Position numbers and translations under genes: made by a program. Below are positions 1,026-63,438 of a stretch of 64,000 bases of DNA, in pieces. A model generated the notes under the pieces. The model saw only the letters and a program-made list of their open reading frames with translations. It was not told the origin of the DNA and did no database searches. How positions within the stretch are numbered: position 1 is the stretch's first letter; each line of letters opens with the position of its first letter. Source of the DNA: Spirochaetia bacterium (GTDB lineage: Bacteria; Spirochaetota; Spirochaetia; UBA9216). The stretch is taken from assembly GCA_963677925.2 (NCBI GenBank), contig CAXXYH010000003.1, positions 64,001 through 128,000 of the forward strand, read 5' to 3'.

Positions 1026-1232
1026 AATGTACCTCCGTTTAGTGATTTGCTTTACGGACGAACAAAGGATTTACCTCCCTTGCTTGCCGCGCTTAACCGT
1101 TCTCGACCAGCCTTCATCAGGCCATGTCAAGGCCGACCGCAGGGAGCCCGCAGGGCCGAAGGGCCTTTACCTGGACAGATAAGGCGGTACAATGAGAGAC
1201 GTGCGGAAACATTTCTTTTTAAAGGATTGTGT

Positions 1233-3632: not shown

Positions 3633-3785
3633 TGCTTTTTGATGATAACCTATAGTAGAAGTACTGTTAAGCGTCTCGCAAGAGACAATATATGATGAAA
3701 AAATCTATCAAATCAGTTATAATCCACATATGATATCTAAAAAATGTATGTATATATTCCAAGTTGAACATAAAAGGCAAAATAC

Positions 3786-8339: not shown

Positions 8340-8412
8340 CTAAATTGCCGGCGCTCATATTTTCACCGACGACTTAGAAAAATCTGATTAAGGCATCTGT
8401 CTTTCAATAAAA

Positions 8413-11322: not shown

Positions 11323-11325
11323 TTT

Positions 11326-11763
11326 TTACCTGCTTATTGCTTCATATATCCTTAATTTTATTACTTCATCATCTATATCATCGTTAATTACCGCTTCAAT
11401 AATATCATGCAGAAGCTCTTTATCAATCTTACCGGCAGCCAGATGAAAACTTATATTCTCCATCTCTTTAATAAAACGCGGAACAGCAAAAACATAACCG
11501 TTTATAAGAAGGAACTGAGCTCCCAGTGATATTGCAATACGCTTATTTCCATCCTGAAAGCAATGGAATTTATTCGAGCAGTAAAAGAGGTGGGTCAATT
11601 TCTCGACAAAGTCGGGATAATAATCATCGTTCTGGATATGAGCTAAGACACTTTCCAACTGCCCTAAATTCAAGACACCGTCAGAACCGCCGCCGCTGAC
11701 CTCTATAGTCTTATGATATACCTCGAGAGCATTTTCAATGGTGATATAAACGGTGCGGCTCAA
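11326..11763 (-). CDS. Doc/Fic family protein
   Basis: HCFQDGNKR Fic/Doc motif. Confidence 0.9.
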   Translation of the reverse strand: MSRTVYITIENALEVYHKTIEVSGGGSDGVLNLGQLESVLAHIQNDDYYPDFVEKLTHLFYCSNKFHCFQDGNKRIAISLGAQFLLINGYVFAVPRFIKEMENISFHLAAGKIDKELLHDIIEAVINDDIDDEVIKLRIYEAISR

Positions 11764-12785
11764 TCCCTCTCCTTCAGACGCTTGAACACATCCTTGGCCT
11801 CTTCCAGACGATCCGCCAATTCTTTGCTCTTTTCCCCAATAAACCGCTCAAATTCATCAGCCTGTACCGGAGAAATGTAATCCTTAAGCTGCAAGTGCAG
11901 AGCATCGCGAAAGGCCAAATCACGGCTTGCCATCTTGTTTCTTGCACGTTCGACAAGGGGTACCCAATGGGGCTGCCTTTCGAATTCGGAGAATAAGACA
12001 TCAGCTTCAAAGGATGTCAGCATTGCCCCTTTCTTCTTGAAGGCTTCTTCAAGTGTTTTAGCAAATCCGTATTCATATGCAGCAATAAGGTCGAGGATCT
12101 CGGAATAGAAGGTATCCCGGACCTTATCCTTCTCCTGAAGTTTCAGGATTTTCCTATATTCTTTCGAATTCTCCCTGAAAATGCTTACATATATCTTATC
12201 GGTATAAAGAGGGTACTTGTATTTCCCCATATCAAGATAGTTCTTAAGGGCATCGGTAAACTCTTTTCGATAGTTTTCTTCCTGAAAATAGGCGATTATA
12301 AAGTCTTCATCACGCTGATTCACATATTTTGTAGCACCGCCGGTACACTTGTTGATAGTATCGATGACGATATCCAGAATCACCTGACGGAGGATTTTAG
12401 CCTTTTCGCTTTCCGTAATCAGCATTCCCAGGTTCAAAAATGAACGAAAATCAAAAACACCAAGGCTTGGAGCCTTCTTGATGTTAACGAAATACATTTC
12501 GTCGACATCAGCTTCGGAAATGGCTAATTTCAACTCCTGCAAGGCTTTACCCCGTAAAACCTCGTAACCGTTATGTTTAAGCTCATCTTCGTTCTGAGAC
12601 AGATAATTATCGATAGTCCGGGGGCTTACCTCAAAAAAATCAGCAACCTGCTCTTTTGTTAGAACGGCCTTATCCATGTAGCTGATGGTGTGGATTCCGA
12701 CATTGCTTTTAATTTCTTCCAGAGCATATGGATTATTGAGGATATTCTGCCGTTCTACCCCGGATACGGTGAGATCTTTAGGCAT
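11760..12785 (-). CDS. Putative DNA-binding protein coupled to the Doc/Fic gene (start likely MPKDLT at 12785)
   Basis: HTH-like TKEQVADFFEVSPRTIDNY; overlaps the hsdS stop and the Fic start. Confidence 0.7.
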   Translation of the reverse strand: MPKDLTVSGVERQNILNNPYALEEIKSNVGIHTISYMDKAVLTKEQVADFFEVSPRTIDNYLSQNEDELKHNGYEVLRGKALQELKLAISEADVDEMYFVNIKKAPSLGVFDFRSFLNLGMLITESEKAKILRQVILDIVIDTINKCTGGATKYVNQRDEDFIIAYFQEENYRKEFTDALKNYLDMGKYKYPLYTDKIYVSIFRENSKEYRKILKLQEKDKVRDTFYSEILDLIAAYEYGFAKTLEEAFKKKGAMLTSFEADVLFSEFERQPHWVPLVERARNKMASRDLAFRDALHLQLKDYISPVQADEFERFIGEKSKELADRLEEAKDVFKRLKERD

Positions 12786-14061
12786 AAACAGCCTCCTGTA
12801 CATCTGCTTCGGTAATTCGCCGTTTACCGGTAACACATTCATGAATCAACGATTTCTTATACTCTTCCAGCTTCTCAATCTGGAGGGTTATTTTCTCGAG
12901 AACGGTATCTATTTCAGATGTTTTTTGGTCGAGGTAAGCTGCAATATTTAATTGTTCTTTATAGCCTGGAACAGGAATATATAATCTTTTTATTGTATCA
13001 ACTGAAATCCCAGGCTGTGCTGCGGCATTTGAATATTGATTAAGATTCATAATGATTAATAATGCCTCTAACCAACGAATTGCATATCGCCTTATTGGAT
13101 AGCAAACTATTGCATGCTCTGTTGCCCAAAACTTTCCGCTAATATAATTTATATTCCCACAAAGAGCGCCTTGTCGTCCAATTAATAGATACTCACCATC
13201 ATTATTGTATTCTGGAAAATATCCACGTAAACCATTGCCGCCCAATACAGGGAATGAGCCTTCATTTTGTATCTGCTCTGATGTAAGGTTCTCACCACTT
13301 TGAAGTTTAAAATTATCTTTAATTCTTTTAACCTTCCAGCCTTTCGGTATTTTTCCAATCCATTCAATTCCGGAATCTTTCATCTCTACTGAATCATCCA
13401 GCCCCTTGGTAACAGCTTTATAGATAATGGATTTCTTGAGTTCTTCAAGATTCTCAAGCTGTTTCCTTTTTACAGCAACGGCCTTATCTATGGTAGCAGT
13501 TGTTCTATCCAGATAGGCTGAGATAAGCTTTTGCTCCGGAAGAGGTGGAAGAGGCAGTATTCCATTTTTGATATGCCTTCTTGAAATAGCCCATCGAGTA
13601 ATTCCTGTTGCTTCCCGATGAAATTGAGATGCAATAGATAAATCTTTAAAACACCAAAAAATAAAAGCCCCATACAAGCGATTTTTATAATTTCGTAATA
13701 TTGCTAAATGATAACCACATAATAGATTTTCAATTTTATCCTTAACAATAGCAGGTACTGCAATATCGAAAGGGTCCTCAGAGTCTTTTGTAATAATTAC
13801 ATCGCTTTCTTCAAGCTGGAACTTAATAACTTCATTTTCATTTGCAGTTGCTTCCATGAAATTGATATCTTGTTTTATGAAATCGTTATAATAGACATCA
13901 ACATAATTACATAGTTTAACTGGTTGCTCATTATCCTCAGTCTTTTTATCCACATTACTAGGAATTACATAGCAACTCCCCTTAATCTTTGTAGAACGCC
14001 ATTCCCTCTGGATCATACCGATCCATTCGGTACCTGACTCAATCAAATCTGACACAATCAT
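12778..14061 (-). CDS. hsdS: Type I RM specificity subunit
   Basis: Two TRDs, PPLPEQ and KDSGIEWIG conserved spacers. Confidence 0.92.
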   Translation of the reverse strand: MIVSDLIESGTEWIGMIQREWRSTKIKGSCYVIPSNVDKKTEDNEQPVKLCNYVDVYYNDFIKQDINFMEATANENEVIKFQLEESDVIITKDSEDPFDIAVPAIVKDKIENLLCGYHLAILRNYKNRLYGAFIFWCFKDLSIASQFHREATGITRWAISRRHIKNGILPLPPLPEQKLISAYLDRTTATIDKAVAVKRKQLENLEELKKSIIYKAVTKGLDDSVEMKDSGIEWIGKIPKGWKVKRIKDNFKLQSGENLTSEQIQNEGSFPVLGGNGLRGYFPEYNNDGEYLLIGRQGALCGNINYISGKFWATEHAIVCYPIRRYAIRWLEALLIIMNLNQYSNAAAQPGISVDTIKRLYIPVPGYKEQLNIAAYLDQKTSEIDTVLEKITLQIEKLEEYKKSLIHECVTGKRRITEADVQEAVYA

Positions 14062-16079
14062 TTCAGCCCCTTCAGAATTACTTCCGCTTCTGATTCCAGC
14101 TGCCAGAACTCTTCCAGTATTTTATCCGCAGGCTTTGGAGGTTCGTATTTATAAAAATACTTGTTCGGCAGGATTTCATAACCAAGCTGCGGCCGGTCTT
14201 CCCATTTGATAATGGGCTTGGAAATCTCCCTTTCAAGAAAAGCCTCTATATCTTCACCATAGGGAATGTATTCATCATCCTGAATGTAATGCTTATGTGT
14301 ATATTTTGCAGAAAGATCCCAATCCTTTATTGCCTTAAAAATCTTCGCGGCTGTTTTATGTACTTCAAGCTCGGGGAAATCAGTCCTGGCTAAATCTGAT
14401 AGCTGGGCTTCAAAAGATTTTGATTCTTTGGTTTGAAGTACAGAATATTCTTTTTCAATACCATCAGGGGTAATAAGCTTTACAGTAAAATCAAGATCAC
14501 CATAGAGATCAAATTTCTTTTTCACATTCGTATTGGAAAGCTGGACATCGAAATTTTCGGTAACCATCATCGGCTCATCATTTTCATCAGTCTGCCAGAA
14601 AGTAACGGCAACCTTATGATATGCAAAATCACTGTTCTGAAATATCTTTACATTTTCATTATCATAACCGGACTTCCTTCCAAGATTATACTGTTCTTTA
14701 ATCCAGGCTCTATGTTCATTCGTCATTCGATTACGCTTGTTGCCGAAGGATTTAGGTTCTTTTTCAAACTGCTGTCTGGCATCAATAATCATCACCTTGC
14801 CTTTATGTTCTACAGGCCTATTGTTTGAAAGCAGCCAGATATAGGTATAGATGCCGGTATTATAGAACATCTGATCCGGCAGCATAACAATTGCATCAAG
14901 CCAGTTATTTTCAATGATCCATCGGCGGATTTCACTCTCTCCGGATCCGCAGTCACCGTTACTCAATGGTGAACCATTAAAGATTATTGCAATTTTGCTG
15001 CCGCCGTCATCTACAGGCTTCATCTTAGTCAGCATTGTCTGTAAAAATAGTAATGCACCGTCATTGGTTCTGGGCATTCCGGCTTTGTAGCGGGTGCTTC
15101 CCAGCTTGCGGGCTTCTTTTTCATAACCGTCTTCACCGCCCCAGGTTACGCCGAAAGGAGGATTTGAAAGCATGTAATCAAATTGATCGTGTTCTCCGGA
15201 AAGCTGGTCCCCGGGATCATCGCTTTCCGGATCATGAGGAATAAGTGAATTTCCGTAATAAATAAAGGCGTTGGAATCGTTCTTAATGAGCATATCAGCC
15301 TTACAGATAGCATAGTTCTGGGGCTGAATTTCATGGCCATGGAGGGTAATCAGGGTTTCGGTTCTGGACTTTTCATCTGAATCATGTATTCTGTCCACAA
15401 CATGGGCTTTTGCAACGGAAAGCATTCCGCCGGTTCCGCAAGCAGGATCGTAGATGGAAACATGCTTATCTTTAACGGAGATATCAAGAAGTTCTACCAT
15501 TAGACGAATGACTTCTCTTGGCGTAAAATGTTCTCCGGCTTCTTCCCCGCTCTGCTCTGAGAATCGTCTTAACAATTCTTCATAGATATATCCCATCTCA
15601 AGGTTACTGATTTTCTCAGGGCTCAGATCTTCATTTCGATACTGGTTAATGATTGGAGCAAGGCGGCCGTTCTTTTTCATCTGGCCGATGATAGCTCTGT
15701 AATTGAAATGATCTATGATCTCCTGGATATTCTCGGAAAAACCGTTGATATAATCCCGGAAGTTCTTTTCCATTATGGTATGATCTTCCTGATAGATTGA
15801 ATCCAGGGTCCAGTTTGTTGAATTTGAGAAATTGTAGGTGGATAATTCCATCTTTTTGACCATCTCATCAAGGTTCCTGGAAGCAAGATCAGGACGTTTT
15901 GAGTGTATTTCTGCTTTTGTTGCTTCTCTCATTTCAATAAGAACACATTCAATGCGCCTGATTACTATAATAGGGAGAATAACGTTTTGATATTCGTATG
16001 CTTTGAACTTTCCCCGAAGGCGTTCAGCTGATTTCCATATTTCATTCGCTAAATTATTAAGTATTTCCTGTGTTGCCAC
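14058..16079 (-). CDS. hsdM: Type I RM N6-adenine methyltransferase
   Basis: GEHFTPREV, YDPACGTGGML, NPPFG. Confidence 0.95.
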   Translation of the reverse strand: MATQEILNNLANEIWKSAERLRGKFKAYEYQNVILPIIVIRRIECVLIEMREATKAEIHSKRPDLASRNLDEMVKKMELSTYNFSNSTNWTLDSIYQEDHTIMEKNFRDYINGFSENIQEIIDHFNYRAIIGQMKKNGRLAPIINQYRNEDLSPEKISNLEMGYIYEELLRRFSEQSGEEAGEHFTPREVIRLMVELLDISVKDKHVSIYDPACGTGGMLSVAKAHVVDRIHDSDEKSRTETLITLHGHEIQPQNYAICKADMLIKNDSNAFIYYGNSLIPHDPESDDPGDQLSGEHDQFDYMLSNPPFGVTWGGEDGYEKEARKLGSTRYKAGMPRTNDGALLFLQTMLTKMKPVDDGGSKIAIIFNGSPLSNGDCGSGESEIRRWIIENNWLDAIVMLPDQMFYNTGIYTYIWLLSNNRPVEHKGKVMIIDARQQFEKEPKSFGNKRNRMTNEHRAWIKEQYNLGRKSGYDNENVKIFQNSDFAYHKVAVTFWQTDENDEPMMVTENFDVQLSNTNVKKKFDLYGDLDFTVKLITPDGIEKEYSVLQTKESKSFEAQLSDLARTDFPELEVHKTAAKIFKAIKDWDLSAKYTHKHYIQDDEYIPYGEDIEAFLEREISKPIIKWEDRPQLGYEILPNKYFYKYEPPKPADKILEEFWQLESEAEVILKGLK

Positions 16080-16469
16080 GATATTCCTCTTTTGTATTGC
16101 CCAGCAGAGGGGCCTATGATAATAGTTTCTCTTTATCTGATTATTATTTATATCATATTTTGATATATTTTAGGGTTAAATTATATTGGATATAGATTGA
16201 ACTTGTGAACCTTAATGAACTTTTTTTGAAAAGAAAAATATAAAATATAGAAGTGTATAGTATAAGTAAAAGAAGTGAACTCATTCTTGGCAAAGGCCTC
16301 CCCCCTACTGTGGGCATAAATCATTGTAATTACTTTATATGTAGCAGATTGCATAAGATAGTGTTACTCCATTTTTTCACAAAAATATATAAATTTTTGT
16401 GAAATTTCTCGGGTATCAATTGTTACAAGCACCAAAATTTTCACCGACGTTTTCCCGGCAATTGCGGTA

Positions 16470-17285
16470 TCATCTTATAAACCGCTCCACAGACATTGTC
16501 TCAGTATCTATCACTACAAATACCAGTGCTCCGGTTTGACCTGGTTGTATCACAATCGTGTTGCCTACTTCGTGCTTCCATTTCCCGCTGACATCGGGTG
16601 ATTCATGAATATGGCCATGTAATGAAAATAAAGGTTGTCTTTGCTTTATGAAATTATATATGGAATCGGAGCCAACACGTCTTCCATCCATACAGACATC
16701 CAGACCAAGCTTTGAAGGCGGCATGTGAATAATATAAACAACCTTTTCATTACCGGATTTCGGCAAATTCTCGAGTTCATCATGTATAGTAGGTAGTTTT
16801 TTTACATATCCGGACCAATCGACAATTTCAGTCCATCCGTCCTCAGTCGAAAGCAGCGCAGTTCCGTTTTGTATTTGAGGAAGGTAATTGTCATTATCCA
16901 TCCGGCATCTATCTTTTAATCTGAACGGGTAATCGACAACCCAGTTCATTCCAATAAAATCAAAATCATTAATCGTTATTATTTTTTGAGCGATATCATG
17001 GATATAATCAAATCGACTGCATTCTTCCTGAAAAAGTTCGTCAAAAATCTTTAGATCATCATTTCCCGGGTAACTTAGATAATGGATTCCAAGCTGCTCG
17101 AATCTTTCAAAATGCTTATGCAGTTTATCCTTTATAAAAGCATCCTGTTTGTGCAGATCAATATTCTTAGGAAACATATCTCCACCATTAATCACAACGT
17201 CAGGATGTAATTCATCAGCAACATTCACTAATGCATCATATTTTCGATTATCACCGTGAAGATCTGTAATGTATATTATTTTCAT
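16470..17285 (-). CDS. Metallophosphoesterase (Icc/calcineurin-like)
   Basis: TDLHG, GGD, PGNDD, HGHIHE motifs. Confidence 0.9.
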   Translation of the reverse strand: MKIIYITDLHGDNRKYDALVNVADELHPDVVINGGDMFPKNIDLHKQDAFIKDKLHKHFERFEQLGIHYLSYPGNDDLKIFDELFQEECSRFDYIHDIAQKIITINDFDFIGMNWVVDYPFRLKDRCRMDNDNYLPQIQNGTALLSTEDGWTEIVDWSGYVKKLPTIHDELENLPKSGNEKVVYIIHMPPSKLGLDVCMDGRRVGSDSIYNFIKQRQPLFSLHGHIHESPDVSGKWKHEVGNTIVIQPGQTGALVFVVIDTETMSVERFIR

Positions 17286-17294
17286 CGTTTCCTT

Positions 17295-17864
17295 TTAATC
17301 GCCAAATATTCCGCCGTTAGCGCCTCTATCCTGAAACTTATGTTTTTCTACTAAAGCGCCAAGAGGGTCCTCGACTTCCAATATTTCACTTTTTGAAAGA
17401 AGATTGAATGTATTTAATAAAAAAGCTTCTTTATCTTCTGCCTTTTCATATTCACTGAGAATTGAAATCTCCTGATACAAACTGCTGAAGCGTCTATGCC
17501 ATAGATCCCGTTCCGTTTGGGCCTTGTCCAGCCATTCAATGAGATCGAGCCTATCAATTGAGTTCAACCTTTCTTCTGCTTCATCTTCTGAATTGAAAAT
17601 ACCGATATATATTGAATGCCAGACAGCGATATAAACAAGACCGTTATTTACATCTTTTGGCCAACGACATTTATCACAATACAGTGTCTCAGTAATAATT
17701 CCCGTTCTTATCCTGCATCCTCTTGTTATATCTCCCGGCTCATATGTATCCATAAAGTTTTCAAAAACTTTGGTCTGAACAGAATTGATTTCATTACCGC
17801 AATCAGGACATTTTATCGAATCCCCCAGTATTAATGTGTCGAATAATCCCATATTATGCCCCAA
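17295..17864 (-). CDS. Hypothetical zinc-ribbon protein
   Basis: MGLFD...CPDC...QTK...CDKC. Confidence 0.7.
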   Translation of the reverse strand: MGHNMGLFDTLILGDSIKCPDCGNEINSVQTKVFENFMDTYEPGDITRGCRIRTGIITETLYCDKCRWPKDVNNGLVYIAVWHSIYIGIFNSEDEAEERLNSIDRLDLIEWLDKAQTERDLWHRRFSSLYQEISILSEYEKAEDKEAFLLNTFNLLSKSEILEVEDPLGALVEKHKFQDRGANGGIFGD

Positions 17865-18830
17865 AAAAGTATAGTTTTACGCAGTTTTATACGTTACTAA
17901 CGTATATCTCATTATAACCTGAATCTAATAAAAATAATTCCGGTGTTTTGCATTTTAATACCGGGGTGACAATTAGCAAGTTTATTTTAAATATCTCATG
18001 ACTCATCTATAAAGCCATCTACTAAAACATATTGTAATACAAGAATCAGTAAATATCAAACATTCATAAAGTTGGCCGTCACATCAACCTTAACAATTAC
18101 AGATATTGGTATAGTATTGGTGGCATGGATGATGTAAAGAGGGCCGCGGTGTGAAACACGGCGGTGCGCGGGCCTTTTTACGGCTGGAAGCCAGACGCTC
18201 CCCCCCAGCGGGGGGGACGGGAGGGGGGGGAGAATACAATAACTTACCTTTCGGCGCCGGTCCGGGAGGAAGCCGTAAAAAGCCGACCCGAAGATAGCAG
18301 CTATTCAATAGCCTTATTTACCGCTCATGAGGGTTACTATAAAAATGAGGTTCCAATGCCTATTACGTTATGATTCTATTGAATGGCTGTTTGATGAGGG
18401 CCGGAAAAGTTCCAGGTAACAACCCAGGCACACAACCGCGCAGGGACGCGCGGGACCTGCAGGTACAGCCCTGGACTAAATGGCATGCCCGGAAAAGGGA
18501 GCGCGGAAGCGCGGTTTCCGGGTGTTGAAACAAAGAGTGTCAGAGCAAAAACGGGAGCGTGAAAATGCAAAGCATTTTACGCGGGTTTTTGCAGCGGCTA
18601 CGGATTAAAAGCCCGCCGGTCTGCGTGAGCAGTCCGGGAGTATTGTCTTTTTTTCTTGTAATAAGGAATTTATCACGGGCGGAGCCGGTGATAAATATTG
18701 GTATTACTAAACAACTATCTGAACAATATTCGGCTAACACCATAGCTTTTAAAATAATATTATTTACTATACGCTCATACTGTATCATAATATGCATATA
18801 ATTTAATTCGTTATTAAGAGGTGAATGTAG

Positions 18831-19313
18831 ATGGCAAAAATACAGTGTCCTTATTGTCGAAAACCCATCGATGAAAATATAGAATATTGTTCTTTTTGTG
18901 GTAAATCTTTAGATGTAGATACAATCAAACTCAGTAAAGAGAAGCAGAAGAAAAGAAATAAACGGATTTGGATATTTGTTGCTATTTCTATTGCTTTTTT
19001 TACGATTGTCATGTTCATTCCATCGGATGGGTCGTCATCAAGTAGTAGTACAGCACAAACTAAAGAAGTTGTCACAAATAGTTCTTTAGATTCCTCTGTA
19101 TCTCAAGTAAAAGTGTGGATGAGAAGTAATTTAAAAGATCCAGATTCATTGGAATATTTAGAATGGTCAGCTGTACAAAAGACAAACACCGGAGATTATA
19201 GAGTTCGTGTTAAATATAGAGCAAAGAATTCTTTCAATGCAGTGGTTATTGAAAACAAGTTATTCACGTTGGATTCTAATGGTGTTGTTATAGATGTGGT
19301 GGATTATCATTAA
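18831..19313 (+). CDS. Zinc-ribbon, single-TM membrane protein
   Basis: CPYC/CSFC, hydrophobic segment, LKDPDS...AKNSF C-terminal domain; GAGG SD. Confidence 0.8.
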   Translation: MAKIQCPYCRKPIDENIEYCSFCGKSLDVDTIKLSKEKQKKRNKRIWIFVAISIAFFTIVMFIPSDGSSSSSSTAQTKEVVTNSSLDSSVSQVKVWMRSNLKDPDSLEYLEWSAVQKTNTGDYRVRVKYRAKNSFNAVVIENKLFTLDSNGVVIDVVDYH

Positions 19314-19470
19314 ATATAAATTATTCTTTGTCAGCAAATATGATAGCATTTAGCTTACGGAATTGGTAGAAATAGGCAAGAATTAAGAACATTACAAGGC
19401 AATCATATTTGACTAATTCCTTATATAGTAGTAATATAGAGAAATAGATAGTAATCTACGGAATTGAGCG

Positions 19471-42147: not shown

Positions 42148-42267
42148 TTTTAACCTCTTACATTTCTTTATAGCTCGTCGGCCGGAGGTCCGGGCTATTA
42201 CTTCTCATATTTTACACCCAACCAGCGAATTCTTCTAATATTTTTATTGCTTCAAATTCTAATGTGT

Positions 42268-42409
42268 ATTTAACGACGTTTTGAGTTGCAAAATCGTTCG
42301 GTGTCCACGCCGAATTGGCGCGATTCTGGAGTGCAGCGCGATCAGCGCGGAACGTCTTTAGCCAGAATCGTGACAATAGATTTTGACTACTCCAAAACTT
42401 TTGTTAAAT
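42268..42409 (-). repeat. attC family A
   Basis: atttaac...gttaaat. Confidence 0.9.
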
Positions 42410-42496
42410 GCTTATACCCAACTTACCCTGCACATAAAATAAAAATGTGGCAAAGCCTGGAGCCCGAATGGGCGGAACATATAACCCCTGTTATAT
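42410..42496 (-). repeat. Right half of split family-B att site
   Basis: aaaataaaaatgtggc...catataacccct gttatat matches the right half of 61740-61830. Confidence 0.8.
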
Positions 42497-43057
42497 AAAG
42501 TACTTGGGCCACCTAATTAAAAACCCTAAATACATGGATGTATTTAGGGCAGTATTGATTTTGGTTTTATATTTCAATATCTGTAATACGAATAAATAAA
42601 TTACTAATTCTATCAATAATTTTTCAAACACTTCATGATTATCAATTACTTCTATCATAGTCTTTAAACCAGTTTTGTTTTTATCTTTCATTCTTAAATA
42701 TTTGATATAACTTCCATGGTATTCAACTATCTCATAATATGAATGAACATATTTATTTCTATCTTCTTCAACTCTTTTTAATTCTTTCTTCAGTTCTGAA
42801 AATTCGTCAATCACAATACTTTTAACATTATTCTGATACATTATTGATTCAATAATATTTATGATTTTATAGAAACTAATCTCGGAGGCTATAATTCTTG
42901 CATATTCAACATTCCCCAATAATTGCCCCAACAATTCAACAAGTGCATGTTCCAATTCTTGAAAGGAAAAAATAATTAATCCTAATGTACTTGTCGGATC
43001 ATTCATGAATAAATTATTATTTGCATTTTCCATCCAATCGGGTATTTTTGAATCCAT
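42491..43057 (-). CDS. Cassette: hypothetical protein, HEPN-like RNKYVH
   Basis: FQELE...RNKYVH; stop lies in the family-B core. Confidence 0.6.
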   Translation of the reverse strand: MDSKIPDWMENANNNLFMNDPTSTLGLIIFSFQELEHALVELLGQLLGNVEYARIIASEISFYKIINIIESIMYQNNVKSIVIDEFSELKKELKRVEEDRNKYVHSYYEIVEYHGSYIKYLRMKDKNKTGLKTMIEVIDNHEVFEKLLIELVIYLFVLQILKYKTKINTALNTSMYLGFLIRWPKYFI

Positions 43058-43091
43058 TTCATCCTCTATCTAAGATTTAAGTTTTAACTTG

Positions 43092-43445
43092 TCAAACAAA
43101 TTGAACTAATATTATCACACCTTCTGCCCATTCATATTTCTCAATTATGCGTTGAACTATTTTTGTAACAAACTCTATATAATTGTTTTTGGCACTATAA
43201 GATATTGGATTTTCTCCATTAGCAGTAGTCAATGTAACAATTAATTTATTAACTCCTTCTTCATTTAATAGGGCAACTCTAAAAGCTATTCTAGTTGCCC
43301 ATGCATCAGTTTCAATTTTTATATTTTTAAAAGCTTCATATTCTAACCATTCTTTTCTACTGATATCATATGGTAGAGTTAAATCATAAGAGAATAATGG
43401 TATAGTTAAAGCAAAAAGCATAATACTGAAGATTAATTTTTTCAT
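43092..43445 (-). CDS. Cassette: secreted hypothetical protein
   Basis: Signal peptide; SD. Confidence 0.7.
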   Translation of the reverse strand: MKKLIFSIMLFALTIPLFSYDLTLPYDISRKEWLEYEAFKNIKIETDAWATRIAFRVALLNEEGVNKLIVTLTTANGENPISYSAKNNYIEFVTKIVQRIIEKYEWAEGVIILVQFV

Positions 43446-43530
43446 TCTTACTCCTAACTTCTAATTCAATCTTTTATGTTCAACACGAGCCAGGACGGCG
43501 AGTGCCAAATCTCCGCTGCCCAAGTATTTT

Positions 43531-43628
43531 ATATAACGTCCCGGGGTTATATGACGTTTTTATTTTTCTTAATTTTACCACCACTTACCCGTATTTACCA
43601 ATCATAAACTATTGGCCCATGTCTGTGC
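43531..43628 (-). repeat. Left half of split family-B att site plus linker
   Basis: atataac gtcccggggttatatgacgtttttatttt. Confidence 0.8.
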
Positions 43629-43772
43629 ATTTAACGACGAAATAAGTTGCGCCCTCGATCCTGAGCCGCAGGCGAAGGAATTGGCGCGGTTTCTGAGTGA
43701 GGGCCATTGCCCGAACGTCTTTAGCAGAAACCGTGACAATAGACGGCGACAACTTCATTTCATTTGTTATGT
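43629..43772 (-). repeat. attC family A
   Basis: atttaac...gttatgt. Confidence 0.9.
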
Positions 43773-52601: not shown

Positions 52602-53241
52602 ATATTATTTTTCTTATCAAAATTCCTCGTTCTGCAAAATATTTTTTAAATAGTTCCAATTGTATTTTGTAATTTTGTTGAGTTCTTATTTCATCTCCTG
52701 AAGGATTATTAATATAAATAGTATTGTTCAAATTATCGACACCTGATACAACAACAAGATGACCACCTTTTTCCCCATTATATGTCATATCCGGTTTACG
52801 GATTAAATAATGTACCGACACAATAAATATATTGCCATCTAATGTTGCATTAAATATCTCATCTGTGTTTAAAGGTGAAACAGAGTTTGCATCTAACTGA
52901 AAACTATCCTTTAAATATTCACAAAACGGTACATAAAATAATCCATCAATACTTTCCTTATTAACTTTAGATCCACCATATTCAGTACATTCTTTTGCTA
53001 ATTGGATTATAGGTGGTGAATCAATCTTCCAGTATTCTAAAATCATTTTCAAACATGCCATTCCGCAAATGTTTTTAGCCCATAATTCATATTCTTTAAC
53101 ATTATTTGCTCCAGAATATTCCCATAAAGGATCATTTGTTGCTTGGATTTTACCAGATATAATTTCTCCTACTATCTCACGAGACATCCATTGTGAATAA
53201 TAAGGCATTTCATTAAGTATAATTTTTTGACTATTAACCAT
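52600..53241 (-). CDS. Cassette: C39-like cysteine peptidase (copy 1)
   Basis: PYYSQ, CGMACLKM, GHLVVVSG, INNP. Confidence 0.8.
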   Translation of the reverse strand: MVNSQKIILNEMPYYSQWMSREIVGEIISGKIQATNDPLWEYSGANNVKEYELWAKNICGMACLKMILEYWKIDSPPIIQLAKECTEYGGSKVNKESIDGLFYVPFCEYLKDSFQLDANSVSPLNTDEIFNATLDGNIFIVSVHYLIRKPDMTYNGEKGGHLVVVSGVDNLNNTIYINNPSGDEIRTQQNYKIQLELFKKYFAERGILIRKII

Positions 53242-55152: not shown

Positions 55153-55294
55153 CCCTTCGTCATAATTTTTTAATAAGAGTTAATTACTCCCCACAATCGC
55201 CCGTCGGCCGGAGGTCCGGGCGATTTCTTATTCCTTATATTACCCCCTAAAACGATTATCAGCTAATATTTTTATTATTACATTCTCTAAGTGC

Positions 55295-55434
55295 ATTTAA
55301 CGACGTTTTGAGCTGCCTGGCGGCGCGAGTCTTCGCGCGCATTGGCGTGATTCTGGAGTGCAGCGCGATCAGCGCGGAACGTCTATGCCAGAATCATGAC
55401 AATAGCCAGGACTGCTCCAAAACTTTTGTTAAAT
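55295..55434 (-). repeat. attC family A
   Basis: atttaac...gttaaat. Confidence 0.9.
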
Positions 55435-55520
55435 GCTATACCCAAACAACCCAATCCATAAAATAAAAATGTGGCGCAGCCCGAAGCCCGAATGGGCTGA
55501 GCATATAGCCCCTGTTATAG
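55435..55520 (-). repeat. Right half of split family-B att site
   Basis: aaaataaaaatgtggcgcagccc...catatagcccct gttatag. Confidence 0.8.
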
Positions 55521-55619
55521 GAAGTATTTTGGCTCTTGAGTCAGACCGTACATCGGAGATAGGGCTGGCCTCTTAAACATACAACTTTCAACTTTAACAG
55601 TATCCTAAAACAAACTTTG

Positions 55620-56747
55620 TCAATTAAAAGCATACTTCACTAAAGCTATTTCATTCTCACTATCACTACCTTTTTCAAATAAAAATAAGTTATCTCCAGT
55701 TTGAAGTTTTCTTACAACTTCGATGTCTTTCAAATCCTCATCAATAGTCCCAATCCATCTTGGACTATTTAACTCTCTTATATCATAAACAAAATAATTC
55801 CCGATTAAAATATTATTAAAATCAAAATCTAAATCAAAATAACTAAACAAGTTTATTTCATCTGTTGAATTACATTTTTGTAGAAATTCATATTTTTTTT
55901 CACTATCTAATTTTATTATGCTCCAAAAATACTCTTCTGAATTTAAACCTCTTGCTCCATCACTTACTATAATATCATTATATATATTAAATCCATTGTC
56001 CTCTAAACTGATAGAATTTATATCGACCAATTCATAATTATTAGAAATATTAGTAATATCATAAACAATCATTTGATTTGTTATTGTAAAAGGATTACCA
56101 TCTTTATCAACTTTAAGCTCACTTGAAAAAGTGTATAAATAATTTGAATTTAAGTAAATTTCTTTATCAATTACTCCTTCGAAAGAATCTAAATAATGTC
56201 TTTCAATTTCTAGCATATTATCAGCATCCAAAATTAATAATAGTTTATAGTATGAAAATGAATTAGAATCTAAAATATAAATTTTATTATCCATACATCT
56301 TAAACTTAAATAATAGGTAGTGTTTAAATTATAGGTATTATTTTCACTAATAGAATATTTAAAAGATGGATTTGTTATATCCTCAATCAAATATACCAGA
56401 CAATCCGTTGACCCTAGAAGATACAAATAATTTTCATAAATATACAATTGTTTAAAATCAGGAACAATATCATTATAATAATTTGAATTATCAACCCAAG
56501 GGATGGTGGAAACTTCAATCAATCCTTCCAAATCTATCAAGTGCACCATCCCATCAGTACTATAATATACTAAAACTTTAGAAGTCTCAGATATAAACGC
56601 AGAGAATGAATCTGCTTTTTCATCTAAAATAAGTTTTGTATCTTTAGAAAATATTTGATTGAAATGGTATCCATTTTGATAATATGGAAAAAAGTTTTTA
56701 CATGAGGTTATTCCTAATAATAATAAAAATAATAAAATCCTTTTCAA
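55620..56747 (-). CDS. Cassette: lipoprotein, probable beta-propeller
   Basis: Lipobox-like LLGITSC; repeated YDI-type strands. Confidence 0.7.
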   Translation of the reverse strand: MKRILLFLLLLGITSCKNFFPYYQNGYHFNQIFSKDTKLILDEKADSFSAFISETSKVLVYYSTDGMVHLIDLEGLIEVSTIPWVDNSNYYNDIVPDFKQLYIYENYLYLLGSTDCLVYLIEDITNPSFKYSISENNTYNLNTTYYLSLRCMDNKIYILDSNSFSYYKLLLILDADNMLEIERHYLDSFEGVIDKEIYLNSNYLYTFSSELKVDKDGNPFTITNQMIVYDITNISNNYELVDINSISLEDNGFNIYNDIIVSDGARGLNSEEYFWSIIKLDSEKKYEFLQKCNSTDEINLFSYFDLDFDFNNILIGNYFVYDIRELNSPRWIGTIDEDLKDIEVVRKLQTGDNLFLFEKGSDSENEIALVKYAFN

Positions 56748-56860
56748 TACGTTTCATTCCTTATATATTGACATAATATATCAATTTTAAATTTTATTCT
56801 TTTTTTCTTATTGCCCGTCGGCCGGAGGTCCGGGCGTCTTTCTCTTAGCCAAAATATTTC

Positions 56861-56954
56861 CTATAACGTCCCGGGGTTATATGACGTTTTTATTTTTTAA
56901 TTTTACCACCAATTACCCGTATTTACCATTTCAAACTGTTTTACCATGTTGTGC
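56861..56954 (-). repeat. Left half of split family-B att site plus linker
   Basis: ctataac gtcccggggttatatgacgtttttatttt. Confidence 0.8.
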
Positions 56955-57092
56955 ATTTAACGACGATTTGAGTAGCAAAATCGGCCGAGTCTTCGAGGCT
57001 TGGCGCAGTTCTGGAACGTAGCGCGATCAGCGCGGAGTGTCTCTGCCAGAACTGTGACAAAGATTTTGACTACTCCAAATCTTTTGTTATAT
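56955..57092 (-). repeat. attC family A
   Basis: atttaac...gttatat. Confidence 0.9.
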
Positions 57093-60283: not shown

Positions 60284-60419
60284 GTATAACGACGATTTGA
60301 GTAGCAAAATTGATCCGCGTCTTCGCGGAATTGGCGCGATTCTGGAGTGAGCGATCAGCGAACGTCTTTAGCCAGAATCGTGACAATAAATTTTGACTAC
60401 TCCAAATCTCTTGTTAAAT
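60284..60419 (-). repeat. attC family A
   Basis: gtataac...gttaaat. Confidence 0.9.
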
Positions 60420-60508
60420 GCTTTTGCCCAACTTACCCAATTCATAAAATAAAAATGTGGCGTAGCCCAAGGAGCGCTTAGCGACGAAGCAAATAACCCC
60501 TGTTATAC
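60420..60508 (-). repeat. Right half of split family-B att site
   Basis: aaaataaaaatgtggcgtagccc...aataacccct gttatac. Confidence 0.8.
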
Positions 60509-60603
60509 GCTTTGAGCTTGACATACAGACCGTTCAACGGAGTTAGGTCTGGATTCTTTATCTAATATAGTAAAATTTTTATCGGAATAATTAATATTAT
60601 ACT

Positions 60604-61638
60604 CTAATCAACCCAAGCAGGTACTTCAGGAGCAAAATCTATTTTATTAGTTACTAACCGATATGCTAATGCCTCTCCTTCATGTTTTATATCAATAGAT
60701 GTTATTTCACATTTGAAAATATGTTGATATTTCTCAGTTAGAACTTCATACGCTTGTTGATTCAGGAGAGTATTAGAAGCTTCTGTATTTGACATTCGAC
60801 AAGCATATACTACAGGGACTCCAACAACAGTGTACTCATTATTTATGATATTCAACGAAACCTCTCCATAATCAATCCCAATGCCTAATCCTATATTATT
60901 TAAAATAACGTTAAAACATGATTTTGATTGATCATAAACTTTATTAAATTCTTCATGACATTCAATTGAACTTTTTAAAGCATAAAACAGAGCATCTTTT
61001 CCTGAATAAAAATCAGGAAAAAATGCAAGAATCCCATCGCCAGTAAATTTATCAAATATACCATAATTTTTTTGTATTATTTTAATTATTCCTTTTATTA
61101 GCTCATTTATAAATTCAGAGAATTTATCTGGGGTTCTTGACTTTAACATTAATTCTGTAGATCTTCTAATATCCAATGAAAACACAACAGCATTTGATTT
61201 TCTCACTTCCTCAAATTGCTTTCTAAATTTTTCATCATTTAGTAATTTGGTTTGAGCTGCTTCATTAATCCTATGATAAATGTATCTTAATTTATATTTA
61301 TTCTGAAGTTCTTCGAATTTATCCTTTAGCACTTTTGTTTCATCTCTTGGATTTTTATTAAAAGTACCAAGTTTTTTTGCCATATCTGCTATTTCATCAA
61401 AAGTGCTAAAATAGTTTTCAAATTTTATGGATTTTAATGTTTCGTCTAATTGATCCAACACATCAAAAGCTATTGATTTAATATTTCTATCAGAAAAATC
61501 TTTTAGAGCCTCAGCTAATTCTTTTATTTTTTCTTCTTCTAAATAACTTTTTGTTAAAATAGCATCTACTTTTGAAATATTATTTTTAGATTCTCTTAAT
61601 GCTTTTCCTGACTCTTCTTTTGCATCATCAAAATTCAA
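60604..61638 (-). CDS. Cassette: class III adenylate/guanylate-type nucleotide cyclase
   Basis: SLDIRRST, DKFTGDG, IGIDYG, GVPVVYACRM. Confidence 0.85.
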   Translation of the reverse strand: MNFDDAKEESGKALRESKNNISKVDAILTKSYLEEEKIKELAEALKDFSDRNIKSIAFDVLDQLDETLKSIKFENYFSTFDEIADMAKKLGTFNKNPRDETKVLKDKFEELQNKYKLRYIYHRINEAAQTKLLNDEKFRKQFEEVRKSNAVVFSLDIRRSTELMLKSRTPDKFSEFINELIKGIIKIIQKNYGIFDKFTGDGILAFFPDFYSGKDALFYALKSSIECHEEFNKVYDQSKSCFNVILNNIGLGIGIDYGEVSLNIINNEYTVVGVPVVYACRMSNTEASNTLLNQQAYEVLTEKYQHIFKCEITSIDIKHEGEALAYRLVTNKIDFAPEVPAWVD

Positions 61639-61739
61639 TATTACACCTCCAACTTTTTTATATCTAAAAATAAAAACTAAATATTAACTCGCCCGTCGGC
61701 CGGAGGTCCGGGCGTCTTATTCTTGTCAAGCTCATTGCG

Positions 61740-61830
61740 TAATAACGTTCCGGGGTTATGTGACGTACGGCGAAGCCGTATGTGGCGCAGCCCGAGGAGC
61801 GTAGTGACGAGCGAATAACCCTTGTTAGAC
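61740..61830 (-). repeat. Intact family-B attC-like site
   Basis: taataac gttccggggttat gtgacgtacggcGAAgccgtatgtggc...ataaccctt gttagac. Confidence 0.8.
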
Positions 61831-61879
61831 GATGTCACGAACCTTCTTCAAAGCCAAGCAACATGGATGTTGTTTGGCT

Positions 61880-62209
61880 TTAATCTATTAACATTTCCTG
61901 TAGCACATTCTTGACGAGATCTACTTCTTTTCTATTTATTTTACCAATCTTTTTAATTAATCTCTTCCTATCAACAGTTCTTAATTGATCTAAAACAATC
62001 CATCCATCTTTATTTTGAAACTTAACAGCTACACGAGTAGGATATGTATGTGATTTTGTTGTCATTGGAGCGATAATAATAGTCTGGATTGTTTCATTCA
62101 TTTCATTTGGTGAAATCACTAAACAAGGTCTTGTCTTTTTTATTTCATGGCCAACTGTTGGATCTAAGTTTATTAAATATACCTCATATTGATGAATTAC
62201 CATTCCCAT
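61880..62209 (-). CDS. mazF: PemK/MazF toxin
   Basis: NLDPTVGHEIKKTRPCLVIS, APMTT, DQLRTVD. Confidence 0.9.
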   Translation of the reverse strand: MGMVIHQYEVYLINLDPTVGHEIKKTRPCLVISPNEMNETIQTIIIAPMTTKSHTYPTRVAVKFQNKDGWIVLDQLRTVDRKRLIKKIGKINRKEVDLVKNVLQEMLID

Positions 62210-62445
62210 TCAAAATCACCCTGTTCAGTCAAATTGTCTAAAAGTAATGAATCATCCCCATTTTGATGCATCTTCATAAACTCTTCGGACCATCCTTCCC
62301 TTGGCTTTTTCTTTATTGGTCTAATCAGTATTTCTGTATTATGCACTTCTAATTCAACTTTTTCTTCAATATTTAACTGTTGCAAAATGCTCTTCGGAAT
62401 TCGTATTCCTTTTGAATTGCCTATAGGAACCACTGAAACTAACAT
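62197..62445 (-). CDS. mazE: AbrB/MazE antitoxin
   Basis: IGNSKGIRIPK; start MLVSV behind GAGG SD. Confidence 0.88.
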   Translation of the reverse strand: MLVSVVPIGNSKGIRIPKSILQQLNIEEKVELEVHNTEILIRPIKKKPREGWSEEFMKMHQNGDDSLLLDNLTEQGDFEWEW

Positions 62446-62460
62446 AATACACCTCTTTAT

Positions 62461-62493
62461 TGTAATTATATAGTAATTACATAAATTTGTCAA
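62461..62493 (-). promoter_or_regulatory. Consensus promoter with overlapping operator palindrome for mazEF
   Basis: TTGACA-17-TATAAT; tgtaattatatagtaattaca inverted repeat. Confidence 0.8.
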
Positions 62494-62546
62494 TCTTTGC
62501 TTGCCAAGGATGGCAAGCATCCTCTTTCTCTTAGGTTCGTGATTTC

Positions 62547-62642
62547 GTCTAACGCCCCGGGGTTATATGACGTTTTTATTTTTCTCAATTTTACCACCAA
62601 TTACCCGTATTTACCATTTCAAACTGTTTTACCATGTTGTGC
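62547..62642 (-). repeat. Left half of split family-B att site plus linker
   Basis: gtctaac gccccggggttatatgacgtttttatttt. Confidence 0.8.
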
Positions 62643-62781
62643 ATTTAACGACGATTTGAGTAGCGAAACCGGCCGAGTCTTCGAGGCTTGGCGTAGTTCT
62701 GGAACGTAGCGCGATCAGCGCGGAGTGTCTTTAGCCAGAACTATGACAAAGGTTTTGACTACTCCAAATCTCTTGTTATCT
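62643..62781 (-). repeat. attC family A
   Basis: atttaac...gttatct; appears identical to 52463-52601 internally. Confidence 0.9.
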
Positions 62782-62784
62782 ATA

Positions 62785-63438
62785 TTATTTTTCTTTATTT
62801 ATTAATTTTCTTATCAAAATTCCTCGTTCTGCAAAATATTTTTTAAATAGTTCCAATTGTATTTTGTAATTTTGTTGAGTTCTTATTTTATCTCCTGAAG
62901 GATTATTAATATAAATAGTATTGTTCAAATTATCGACACCTGATACAACAACAAGATGACCACCTTTTTCCCCATTATATGTCATATCCGGTTTACGGAT
63001 TAAATAATGTACCGACACAATAAATATATTGCCATCTAATGTTGCATTAAATATCTCATCTGTGTTTAAAGGTGAAACAGAGTTTGCATCTAACTGAAAT
63101 CTATCCTTTAAATATTCACAAAACGGTACATAAAATAATCCATCAATACTTTCCTTATTAACTTTATATCCACCATATTCAGTACATTCTTTTGCTAATT
63201 GGATTATAGGTGGTGAATCAATCTTCCAGTATTCTAAAATCATTTTCAAACATGCCATTCCGCAAATGTTTTTAGCCCATAATTCATATTCTTTAACATT
63301 ATTTGCTCCAGAATATTCCCATAAAGGATCATCTGTTGCTTGGATTTTACCAGATATAATTTCTCCTACTATCTCACGAGACATCCATTGTGAATAATAA
63401 GGCATTTCATTAAGTATAATTTTTTGACTATTAACCAT
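62785..63438 (-). CDS. Cassette: C39-like cysteine peptidase (copy 2)
   Basis: Near-identical to 52600-53241. Confidence 0.8.
   Translation of the reverse strand: MVNSQKIILNEMPYYSQWMSREIVGEIISGKIQATDDPLWEYSGANNVKEYELWAKNICGMACLKMILEYWKIDSPPIIQLAKECTEYGGYKVNKESIDGLFYVPFCEYLKDRFQLDANSVSPLNTDEIFNATLDGNIFIVSVHYLIRKPDMTYNGEKGGHLVVVSGVDNLNNTIYINNPSGDKIRTQQNYKIQLELFKKYFAERGILIRKLINKEK

Follow-up and report, generated by a model that had tools for sequence, protein, structure and literature searches.

Nested attC-in-attC sites and cassettes shared between two arrays of a spirochaete genome

A sedentary chromosomal integron consists of an IntI integrase, an attI site and an array of attC cassettes, as in the Vibrio superintegron with its VCR repeats. 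The attC site (59-base element) is made of the simple sites 1L-2L and 2R-1R and forms a bottom-strand hairpin with a variable terminal structure; in solved IntI-attC complexes the extrahelical bases of this hairpin are read by the IntI-specific insert. In the usual view, an integron cassette has a single attC, which one kind of integrase reads, and exchange between platforms hinges on integrase tolerance. Mobile elements such as the IS1111-attC insertion sequences and the group IIC-attC introns target attC sites. To our knowledge no integron cassette with two nested sites is known, and we found in the literature no published description of a cassette with two nested recombination sites. Non-standard or hybrid boundary sites inside an integron array are described for the delta-attI-type cassettes of mobile integrons, which have unusual boundaries and truncated attI sites of a single system; as far as the accessible part of that account goes, and unlike the sites reported here, they involve no site within a site and no link of two recombinase systems (PMC12901181).

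Here we analyse a 64,000-nt stretch of contig C3 of a Spirochaetia bacterium (the window; coordinates refer to it unless a contig is named). The locus resembles a sedentary chromosomal integron in that an IntI scoring above the curated model cut-off is oriented divergently from a long array of mutually similar attC sites that form imperfect palindromes, and in that the cassettes are low in GC and include a toxin-antitoxin pair. It differs in that some cassettes carry a second, different hairpin wrapped around the attC. We refer to the attC family as A, to the second hairpin as B and to the composite as B[A].

Two cassette systems and their recombinases

The genome runs two cassette systems, A and B, on different contigs. 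System A is the array on C3, with 31 A-type sites within the window; genome-wide, the nhmmer A profile finds 43 (39 on C3 and 4 on contig C4), and all four on C4 sit within composite B sites of roughly 310 nt. The A-type hairpins measure ~135 nt and have a common 69-nt central block at up to 99% identity. Their cores ATTTAAC/GTTAAAT fit the RYYYAAC/GTTRRRY rule and the array lies beside intI, which identifies them as attC; many compensatory pairs are found in the A part of the composite alignment (A2). The integrase, IntI-A (C3:128199-129458, just past the right end of the window), reaches 382.5 bits with TIGR02249 (cut-off 265), in one stretch covering model positions 5-315. Judging by the sequence, system A is a canonical integron with an IntI-type integrase.

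System B is an array of 16 B-type sites on C4, downstream of the tyrosine recombinase IntB (C4:1138043-1139116). The B profile gives 21 matches in the whole genome, the 16 of the C4 array and five on C3, the latter being solely right halves or the single intact B found between halves. B-type hairpins measure ~87 nt, each with R and L boxes and a three-way junction, and the consensus fold of 11 intact sites (31 pairs, 6 with compensatory changes) comprises an R stem TAAC(G)/(T)GTTA, an 11-bp L stem and the junction, an R/L hairpin as expected of an attC-like site. Also as in attC, the box layout reads TAAC, spacer, GGGGTTAT / ATAACCCC, spacer, GTTA, the hairpin is conserved around a variable central structure, and core bases travel with the cassette. 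Unlike in attC, the L stem is continuous, without single extrahelical bases, the sole asymmetry being a one-sided 4-nt bulge (TCCC/TTCC) between the R and L boxes, and the neighbouring recombinase lacks the IntI insert.

Counting sites with a recognisable left box, and so leaving out 1/16 in this genome (G000), 3/32 in its congener G001 and 5/10 in G007 (another genus), the three variable core bases are fully complementary across the cassette in 8/14, 22/28 and 3/5 pairs respectively, the G001 pairs being non-independent owing to repeated near-identical units. Within one site they are complementary in 1/15, 7/29 and 0/6 cases (permutation P <= 0.005). Since the variable bases match across the cassette and not within the site, B is, on this sequence record, a real crossover site with the crossover inside the core.

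A search for a second integrase had been proposed in the preliminary description, and a second tyrosine recombinase does lie beside the B array, although it turns out to be Xer-like and not of the IntI type. On TIGR02249 IntB reaches 194 bits, below the cut-off of 265, in two stretches that skip model positions 181-235; BLASTP against IntI-A leaves gaps of 31 and 8 residues at the IntI-specific insert, and the additional domain near patch III is absent. The solved IntI4 chain 2a3v matches IntB in two stretches, whereas XerA chains match it in one; its best solved relatives are the XerA chains 4a8e and 5hxy. Like archaeal XerA and bacterial XerC/D, IntB passes the NCBIfam XerA-type model (232.5 bits, cut-off 220), but unlike a Xer enzyme at its single dif site it heads an array of 16 or more cassette-bounding hairpin sites. 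An additional N-terminal domain of ~80 aa in IntB gives a HARP-like match below threshold, and further Xer-like genes are present in the genome.

What ties IntB to B is its position. IntB orthologues adjoin B arrays in unchanged relative orientation in G000, G001, G004 and G007, and in 4/4 of these a B-box-like motif (GGTTATATG/GGTTATGCG) directly follows the IntB stop codon. A scan of the genome collection with IntB gave five loci, of which the congener alone is close (96%), and a metagenome scan gave 16 loci, all at or below 41% identity. As a repeat search found no site arrays at two of the metagenome loci or at the Pacearchaeota locus of the genome-collection scan, the link between IntB and cassette arrays is shown only within this spirochaete lineage. 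Presumably IntI-A acts on A and IntB on B. Both recombinases occur in 5/5 relatives checked, so co-occurrence does not tell their roles apart, and since IntB lacks the IntI insert and the B L stem lacks single extrahelical bases, IntI-A may act on both site types.

Split B sites in the A array

The preliminary description had noted one cassette of the A array in which the two halves of a B site lie at opposite ends, in the order attC-A, right half of B, two genes, left half of B, A core. Each of these elements is where it was claimed to be, and the layout recurs: there are three cases in the window and a fourth ~10 kb to its left. The features are as follows.

42264-42410, plus strand: left attC-A of the first case (nhmmer A profile, 131 bits; cores atttaac and gttaaat)
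42411-42436, plus strand: spacer R, 26 nt, between the A core and the B right half (moderately conserved in alignment A2)
42437-42497, plus strand: B right half, aaaataaaaatgtggc...ataacccctgttatat (B profile positions 38-87, E 4.9e-7 genome-wide)
42491-43057, minus strand: cassette ORF, 188 aa, no confident family
43092-43445, minus strand: cassette ORF, 117 aa, no family match
43531-43566, plus strand: B left half, atataacgtcccggggttatatgacgtttttatttt (motif counts)
43567-43626, minus strand: spacer L, 60 nt, with a promoter-like site on the sense strand
43627-43770, plus strand: right attC-A (nhmmer A profile, 90.9 bits)
55291-57089, plus strand: second split case (A and B profiles)
60285-62778, plus strand: third split case (A and B profiles)
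C3:53380-54350, outside the window: fourth split case

In the first case (42264-43770) the left attC-A folds on the plus strand at -34.7 kcal/mol (z -5.7) with asymmetric bulges. It is the dual-site cassette's own A site on the sense (minus) strand, the plus strand being the folding 'bottom' strand. The B right half contains the 3' strand of the long arm (aaaataaaaatgt), a second arm, the L box and the core gttatat; the left half contains the core atataac, the 4-nt bulge, the L box ggggttatatg and the 5' strand of the long arm (acgtttttatttt). Neither motif is expected by chance: within the window the 17-nt left-half motif occurs 4 times (0.00 expected) and the 16-nt right-arm motif 3 times (0.01 expected). 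The right attC-A belongs to the neighbouring upstream A cassette and opens with the core gcatttaac (43627-43635), which is the crossover point. For the 188-aa ORF there is a sub-threshold HEPN-like match (17.4 bits, cut-off 27.1) and a terminator-like hairpin lies at 42550-42523. No homologue of the cassette was found in the set searched, namely C1, C2, C4 and the other-genome loci L022-L063, and Rfam gives no match at E <= 0.1 in window 40000-64000.

The second case runs A, spacer R, B right half (55460-55518), cassette Z with a minus-strand ORF (55620-56747), B left half (56864-56896), spacer L, A. The third encloses two cassettes and the intact B with short arm acgtacggcGAAgccgtatgt that had been used as the reference for the split halves, found at 61743-61827; its order is A, spacer R, B right half (60446-60506), cassette X (ORF 60604-61638, with 2 core mismatches by eye), intact B, cassette Y (MazF-like 61880-62209 and MazE-like 62197-62520), B left half (62548-62582), spacer L, A. 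In the fourth the halves are of different subtypes with mismatched L boxes, and a poor B stem is expected; this mismatch fits an A x A excision between two different composites and does not contradict the model given below.

The idea that the halves rejoin in a circle could have failed in two ways, through halves that do not rebuild a B fold or through halves that occur unpaired. When closed in silico, the circle junctions of all three window cases form the outer B stems around the A hairpin, with 31-35 end-to-end pairs and z-scores of -6.5 to -9.2. In genome-wide B-profile and motif scans of this genome, all B halves detected in A arrays are paired, right then left, and no orphan halves were found.

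Unsplit composites and their conservation

If the halves derive from one site, unsplit B[A] composites might be found elsewhere, as had been suggested, and they are: four on C4, inside the 16-site B array, one in the B array of G001 and two in that of G007. In each, a complete A site with its conserved spacers sits inside the short arm of B. Where a plain B site has its 13-nt short arm, the composite has a 13-bp AT stem (acgtttttatttt / aaaataaaaatgt), which encloses spacer L, the A site and spacer R, and the folding strands of A and B are the same DNA strand. The unsplit composite folds at -61.9 kcal/mol (z -5.4) into the outer B stems, the AT arm and the inner A hairpin. Alignment of the seven unsplit composites gives 80 pairs, 22 with compensatory changes; in G007 the L stem itself differs and is compensated (gggaatataag / cttatattccc). 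G007 also has one split copy in its A array, with variable core positions mismatched 3/3 by eye, whereas the A-array stretches retrieved from G001 contain no split halves. The left junction pattern occurs in 5/401 genomes of the class (reversed control, 0 matches) and has 0 matches in a metagenome scan. In G237, from another family, only a remnant is present, in which the left arm, spacer L and the A core give way to unrelated DNA.

Foreign DNA at a fixed position of an attC-like hairpin is also seen with IS1111-attC elements and group IIC-attC introns, but the insert in the B arm is ~235 nt long (spacer L, A site, spacer R), contains neither transposase nor reverse transcriptase and is itself a recombination site. 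Birth of the composite by an A cassette inserting at a secondary site in the B arm was considered and rejected: a full canonical core follows the A core, which indicates an att-type target and not a random GTT. Differing A subtypes are found inside composites, and core crossovers alone do not explain them.

At 43601 to 43572, spacer L contains a promoter-like site directed into the cassette, with TTGGTA and a TG-preceded TAAAAT separated by 18 nt. The motif TGnTAnAAT is present in 13/13 distinct spacer L copies, and we suggest that it may function as an extended -10 promoter. The region as a whole is not enriched in promoter-like matches (11, against 8.5 expected from shuffles). A second arm with a T-run was also considered as a sense-strand terminator in the composite, and was dropped as the terminator scan called none there.

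The composite might be only a dead-end scar, left when an A unit landed in the short arm of B, with no adapter role and with split copies as rare accidents. The short arm does behave as an insertion hotspot, since a different insert of ~95 nt occupies the same position in one G000 site and five G001 sites; taken as a candidate third nested site, this insert has no second or split copy in this genome. A scar would not, however, be expected to keep its two folds, A and B, intact in two genera with compensatory changes, a 13-bp arm invariant in 7/7 unsplit composites, or an extended -10 motif in spacer L across two divergent sequence types, and the composite has been used at least four times in G000 and once in G007. 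We therefore consider a mere scar quite unlikely and favour a composite that serves cassette movement.

Shared cassettes and routes between the arrays

Two of the enclosed cassettes have copies in the B array, at 98.4-100% identity and with breakpoints at the A and B cores. Cassette Z (window 55291-56890) matches C4:1149386-1147787 at 98.4% over 1601 nt. Similarity between the two copies begins at the A core and fades out at the B core, and the left flanks are unrelated, being the 5' region of a cassette at one locus and spacer L at the other. Spacer L and the flanking A site of the window copy are 81% identical to the composite of the C4 twin and 87-90% identical to two other C4 composites. 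Because its spacer L differs from that of the C4 twin, a single B x B excision fails to explain the window copy. Cassette Y is identical to its C4 copy over 720/720 nt, and copies at 90% and 88% lie in the B arrays of G001 and G007, which suggests that Y moved from a B array into the A array. For cassette X and the cassette of the first case no twin was found in C4.

Could these shared segments be an assembly artefact, the assembler having jumped between arrays at A repeats and copied B-array segments into C3? The genome has metagenome-assembly hallmarks, its congener G001 is labelled a MAG, the arrays are rich in repeats, and short-read contigs from the likely source run break at attC sites. 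Yet about 1.3-1.6% of positions differ between the Z copies, which marks them as distinct loci, and the spacer L and left half beside the C3 copy are not those beside the C4 copy. The split layout is also present in G007, a separate one-contig genome of another genus, and cassette X and the cassette of the first case have no C4 segment from which they could have been copied. An artefact of this kind is thus hardly credible. In the short assembled contigs of two runs, which are broken at repeats, no circle junctions were found; the apparent joints there are explained by other B sites or by C4 composites, and in the joint of 43640 to 42314, for example, the A body is that of the third C4 composite.

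Cassettes would also move without any site-specific crossover at the A core if A repeats of one array underwent homologous recombination or gene conversion with those of the other. The 69-nt A block is long and similar enough for RecA-type exchange, and the differing A subtypes in composites hint at exchange within A bodies. The identity of the Z copies, though, begins at the A core, and as the flanks to its left are unrelated there is no homology there to support a crossover; moreover, in the B arrays the variable core bases stay with their cassettes, the pattern that core crossovers leave behind. As the origin of the split cassettes, such exchange appears very improbable to us, and we prefer site-specific recombination at the cores.

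The site-specific reading can itself be turned around. In that case C3 would have begun as a B-type array with composites, and IntI-A would have inserted A cassettes into their A sites. Topology alone cannot separate such an invasion from the entry of B cassettes into an A array, and the segment bounded by the B left half at 43531 and the B right half at 55460 could count as a single giant composite with ~9 A cassettes inside. Against this, the C3 array starts at IntI-A, its 31/31 window sites match the A type, and its distal 23 kb (window 19472-42410) contain A sites only. Three genomes have cassette Y in their B arrays, but it is in an A array here only, and none of the unsplit composites holds an inserted A cassette (0/4 in G000, 0/1 in G001 and 0/2 in G007). 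This origin of C3 is therefore unlikely, and entry of B cassettes into the A array remains our preferred direction. The adapter role originally proposed for these cassettes is supported, but the cassettes are not foreign as first supposed, since they belong to a second array resident in the same genome.

We consider it likely that dual-site cassettes shuttle between two platforms, the A and the B arrays. Release of a circle carrying B[A] could take place at two B sites (B x B) or at the A sites of two composites in a B array (A x A). Either circle would enter an A array via its A core, and this integration would cut the composite open, the product being a cassette flanked by 'A, spacer R, B right half' and 'B left half, spacer L, A', precisely the layout observed in the window. 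By the reverse path the cassette would return to a B array, and the promoter-like motif of spacer L would be aimed outward at the downstream cassette. Recombination itself, a part for IntB in it, the direction of transfer and current activity are what we infer from the arrangement, the shared cassettes and their breakpoints.

More tentatively, B[A] could be an evolved two-key site, an attC within an attC that is a substrate both of a canonical IntI and of an insert-less Xer-like enzyme and that, with its own promoter, acts as a dedicated shuttle pooling two otherwise incompatible reservoirs. Should this reading be true, IntB and the B array would constitute a cassette platform of a new kind, separate from the IntI family. 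The nested sites show that an attC-like hairpin can tolerate large insertions in its variable part and that these can even be put to use, and structure-recognised nested sites could serve as orthogonal recombination tools. A second platform under a Xer-like enzyme without the IntI insert would bear on the evolution of integron integrases from Xer-type ancestors, and a nested double site would give genes a structural path from one recombination system to another.

Split and unsplit forms of the B site

A low-GC cassette array with its genes on the minus strand fills the window from ~19.4 kb to the right end and contains sites of two attC-type families, A and B. The preliminary description had pointed to a cassette bounded by A sites and carrying half of a B site at each end; every element of it, and an intact B site, was confirmed in place (bare coordinates are window positions, the window being C3:64001-128000 of genome G000):

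42264-42410: attC-A
42437-42497: right half of B
between the B halves, minus strand: two ORFs
43531-43566: left half of B
43627-43635: core gcatttaac, start of the next attC-A
61743-61827: intact B, short arm acgtacggc-gaa-gccgtatgt

The B motifs occur far more often than expected by chance (left-half motif, 4 matches versus 0.00 expected; right-arm motif, 3 versus 0.01). The split layout recurs at 55291-57089 (second case, with cassette Z), at 60285-62778 (third case, where two cassettes, X and Y, and an intact B lie between the halves) and a further time outside the window, close to its left end (fourth case, C3:53380-54350), and the spacers joining the A site to the left and right halves of B (spacers L and R) are conserved among split copies. 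When the two ends of each window case were joined in silico at the A core by script and folded, the rejoined halves rebuilt the B fold at all three circle junctions, as had been expected, with 31-35 end-to-end pairs and z of -6.5 to -9.2.

The earlier prediction that unsplit composites, B[A], with a whole A site inside the short arm of B, should be found elsewhere was borne out within the same genome (G000), where all four A sites of contig C4 sit within ~310-nt B sites:

C4:1142523-1142833: composite B[A]
C4:1143764-1144075: composite B[A]
C4:1145044-1145357: composite B[A]
C4:1149159-1149469: composite B[A]

The order is B left half, acgtttttatttt, spacer L, complete A site, spacer R, aaaataaaaatgt and B right half, and the composite exists in two physical states, unsplit on C4 and split in the window's array. 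One C4 composite folds into outer B stems, a 13-bp AT arm, an inner A hairpin and a second B arm (-61.9 kcal/mol, z -5.4). The consensus from an alignment of seven unsplit composites (four from G000, one from its congener G001 and two from G007, of another genus) has 80 pairs, 22 of them with compensatory changes, and an invariant AT arm. The A sites that the composites enclose belong to more than one subtype. That the insert is an attC-targeting IS or an intron can be ruled out since, in contrast to these, it has neither an ORF nor an Rfam match.

A third state of the short arm was also observed, in which a conserved ~95-nt insert with its own inverted repeat occupies the same position as the A-containing insert (L007:11634-11812, that is C4:1147640-1147806, and five sites in the G001 loci L022 and L023; mean column identity 92% over the six copies). 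G000 has a single copy of this insert and no split copies.

In spacer L, a script found the motif TGnTAnAAT at a distance of 3-8 nt from the A-run in each of 13 distinct copies, which represent two divergent spacer types; two copies of genome G008 also have it, by eye. A scan also called a promoter-like site in spacer L; as this AT-rich region shows no excess of matches of that kind, a promoter function of the spacer is put forward here as hypothetical.

Among other genomes, the B array of G001 has 32 matches with one unsplit composite, and no split halves were found in the fetched stretches of its A array. The B array of G007 contains two unsplit composites, in which the L stem differs and the change is compensated, and one split copy, with mismatched core boxes, is present in its A array of 51 sites. 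A scan of 401 genomes of the class found the left junction pattern in 5 and its reversed control in none. One of the five, G237 from another family, retains a remnant only: around G237:C1:1313254-1313325 (locus L047) nothing more than the left arm with spacer L and an A core is present before unrelated DNA begins, with one A site 2 kb off, and on its sequence we read this stretch as the remnant of a composite-derived cassette start.

The two arrays and the neighbouring recombinases

Profile searches of the whole G000 genome identified 43 A-type sites and 21 B-type matches; the 5 B-type matches outside the C4 array are on C3 and are only right halves, or the single intact B between halves.

Sites and recombinases of the two systems
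C3, window's array: 31 A-type sites
C3:51614-60510: second block, 8 A-type sites
C4: 4 A-type sites
C4:1140792-1157964: B-type array, 16 sites
C3:128199-129458: IntI-A, integron integrase, divergent from the cassettes, just past the window's right end
C4:1138043-1139116: IntB, 357-aa tyrosine recombinase, same orientation as the cassette ORFs, heading the C4 array

System A is a chromosomal integron of the ordinary sedentary kind, and IntI-A scores 382.5 bits on TIGR02249 (cut-off 265). The IntI model has a match at E <= 1e-40 in all five relatives checked and is over the cut-off in four; the match in G004 is split and under it. The 31-site block spans C3:83472-126778 and is separated from the 8-site block by ~23 kb of normal-GC DNA (inside the window, positions 1-19400, C3:64001-83400); a weak tyrosine-recombinase match lies at C3:62023-62532. 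The DNA between the two blocks may have entered the array as an inserted element. A 300-nt stretch is present twice (52603-52902 and 62800-63099, 99% identity), each time with a similar attC-A site on its left, and represents a recent duplication of a cassette start inside the array.

Two hairpins recur among the cassettes. Many cassette genes have the conserved GC-rich hairpin gcccgtcggccggaggtccgggc (+ strand, ~30 nt each, at 28984, 40512, 42170, 48522, 55196, 56810 and 61688) close to their 5' end on the sense strand; both kinds of array contain it, G001 and G007 have it too, and it also lies immediately downstream of IntB. The other, ccagaccgt.cggag..aggtctgg (~28 nt each, at 40750, 53930 and 60540), sits between cassette genes and attC sites and, being at the cassette 3' end on the sense strand, is probably a terminator.

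A second integrase had been suggested, and a second tyrosine recombinase, IntB, does adjoin the B array, but it fails the integron-integrase model, staying below the cut-off: its 194 bits come from two stretches, between which the IntI-insert region is passed over. It is over the threshold of a XerA-type model (232.5 bits, cut-off 220), its closest solved structures are archaeal XerA chains (4a8e, 5hxy), and in BLASTP it is 30% identical to IntI-A, the alignment being interrupted at the IntI-insert region by gaps of 31 and 8 residues. Residues 1-80 (L003:1258-1500) form an extra N-terminal domain with a sub-threshold HARP-like match (22.3 bits, cut-off 25); many homologues carry such a domain, and PF07443 or PF22823 is precomputed for relatives. 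HARP domains bind branched DNA, and a HARP-like domain would suit a hairpin or junction substrate. Orthologues of IntB stand at the end of the B array in G001 (96% identity) and beside it in G007 (53%), and G004 has the same IntB-to-array layout. Directly after the IntB stop codon a B-box-like motif is conserved in four genomes (GGTTATATG in G000, G001 and G007, GGTTATGCG in G004), a candidate attI of system B.

The B core as cassette boundary

The common fold of 11 intact B sites consists of an R stem TAAC(G)/(T)GTTA, a one-sided 4-nt bulge, an 11-bp L stem and a three-way junction, without extrahelical bases. As far as its sequences can tell, system B functions like an integron, from which it differs in a recombinase failing the IntI test and in the lack of extrahelical bases. 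Complementarity of the three variable bases beside the B core is much commoner across the cassette than within a site (permutation test, P <= 0.005).

Complementary core bases, sites without a recognisable left box dropped
G000: across cassette 8/14, within one site 1/15
G001: across cassette 22/28, within one site 7/29 (inflated by repeated units)
G007: across cassette 3/5, within one site 0/6

Matching of variable core bases across the cassette is the classic signature of crossover inside the core, and this pattern argues that B is a true cassette boundary. The split cases follow the same pattern: by eye, the cores are GTTATAT/ATATAAC in the reported split case, GTTATAG/CTATAAC in the second and GTTAGAC/GTCTAAC in cassette Y, with two mismatches in cassette X.

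Cassettes common to both arrays and their proposed transfer

Window 55291-56890 is 98.4% identical to C4:1149386-1147787 over 1601 nt, covering the A site, spacer R, B right half, cassette Z and B left box. Identity begins at the A core, left of which the two loci are unrelated, so simple homologous exchange is excluded at that end; on the other side it decays at the B core. Cassette Y (61880-62520; MazF/PemK-like toxin, 112.9 bits, and MazE-like antitoxin, 36.4 bits) is identical to its C4 copy over 720 of 720 nt. Since it is also found in the B arrays of G001 (90%) and G007 (88%), its home appears to be the B array. Toxin-antitoxin pairs of this kind are a typical feature of large chromosomal cassette arrays.

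The spacer L that adjoins cassette Z in the window differs from that of the C4 twin: over this spacer and the A site next to it, identity is 81% with the twin's composite and 87-90% with two other composites of C4. In the fourth split case the left half is of the G007 subtype, the right half of that of G000. Neither the non-twin spacer nor halves of mixed subtype would result from a single B x B excision; both fit A x A excision between two different composites of a B array and subsequent insertion at an A site.

In full-text searches of literature mostly from outside the subscription journals, we found no description of a nested or composite attC or of a dual-site cassette. In PMC7439510 'double attC' denotes double mutants, and passages of an archaeal integron preprint (10.1101/2022.02.06.479319) note atypical Spirochaetota IntIs and mention no nesting.

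The original proposal, of one circular cassette with two recombination sites that would serve as an adapter for entry of B cassettes into an A-type array, is supported by independent predictions that were borne out. The arrangement may be an adapter under selection, or an accident that is tolerated and put to use again and again. In the mechanism that we propose, the A core would be cut by IntI-A and the B core by IntB, with circles bearing B[A] as intermediates. A x A recombination of two different B-array composites would excise the cassette, which would then insert at an A site, and most transfer would lead out of the B array and into the A array. Since A and B sites fold on the same DNA strand, gene orientation would be kept after transfer, as is observed.
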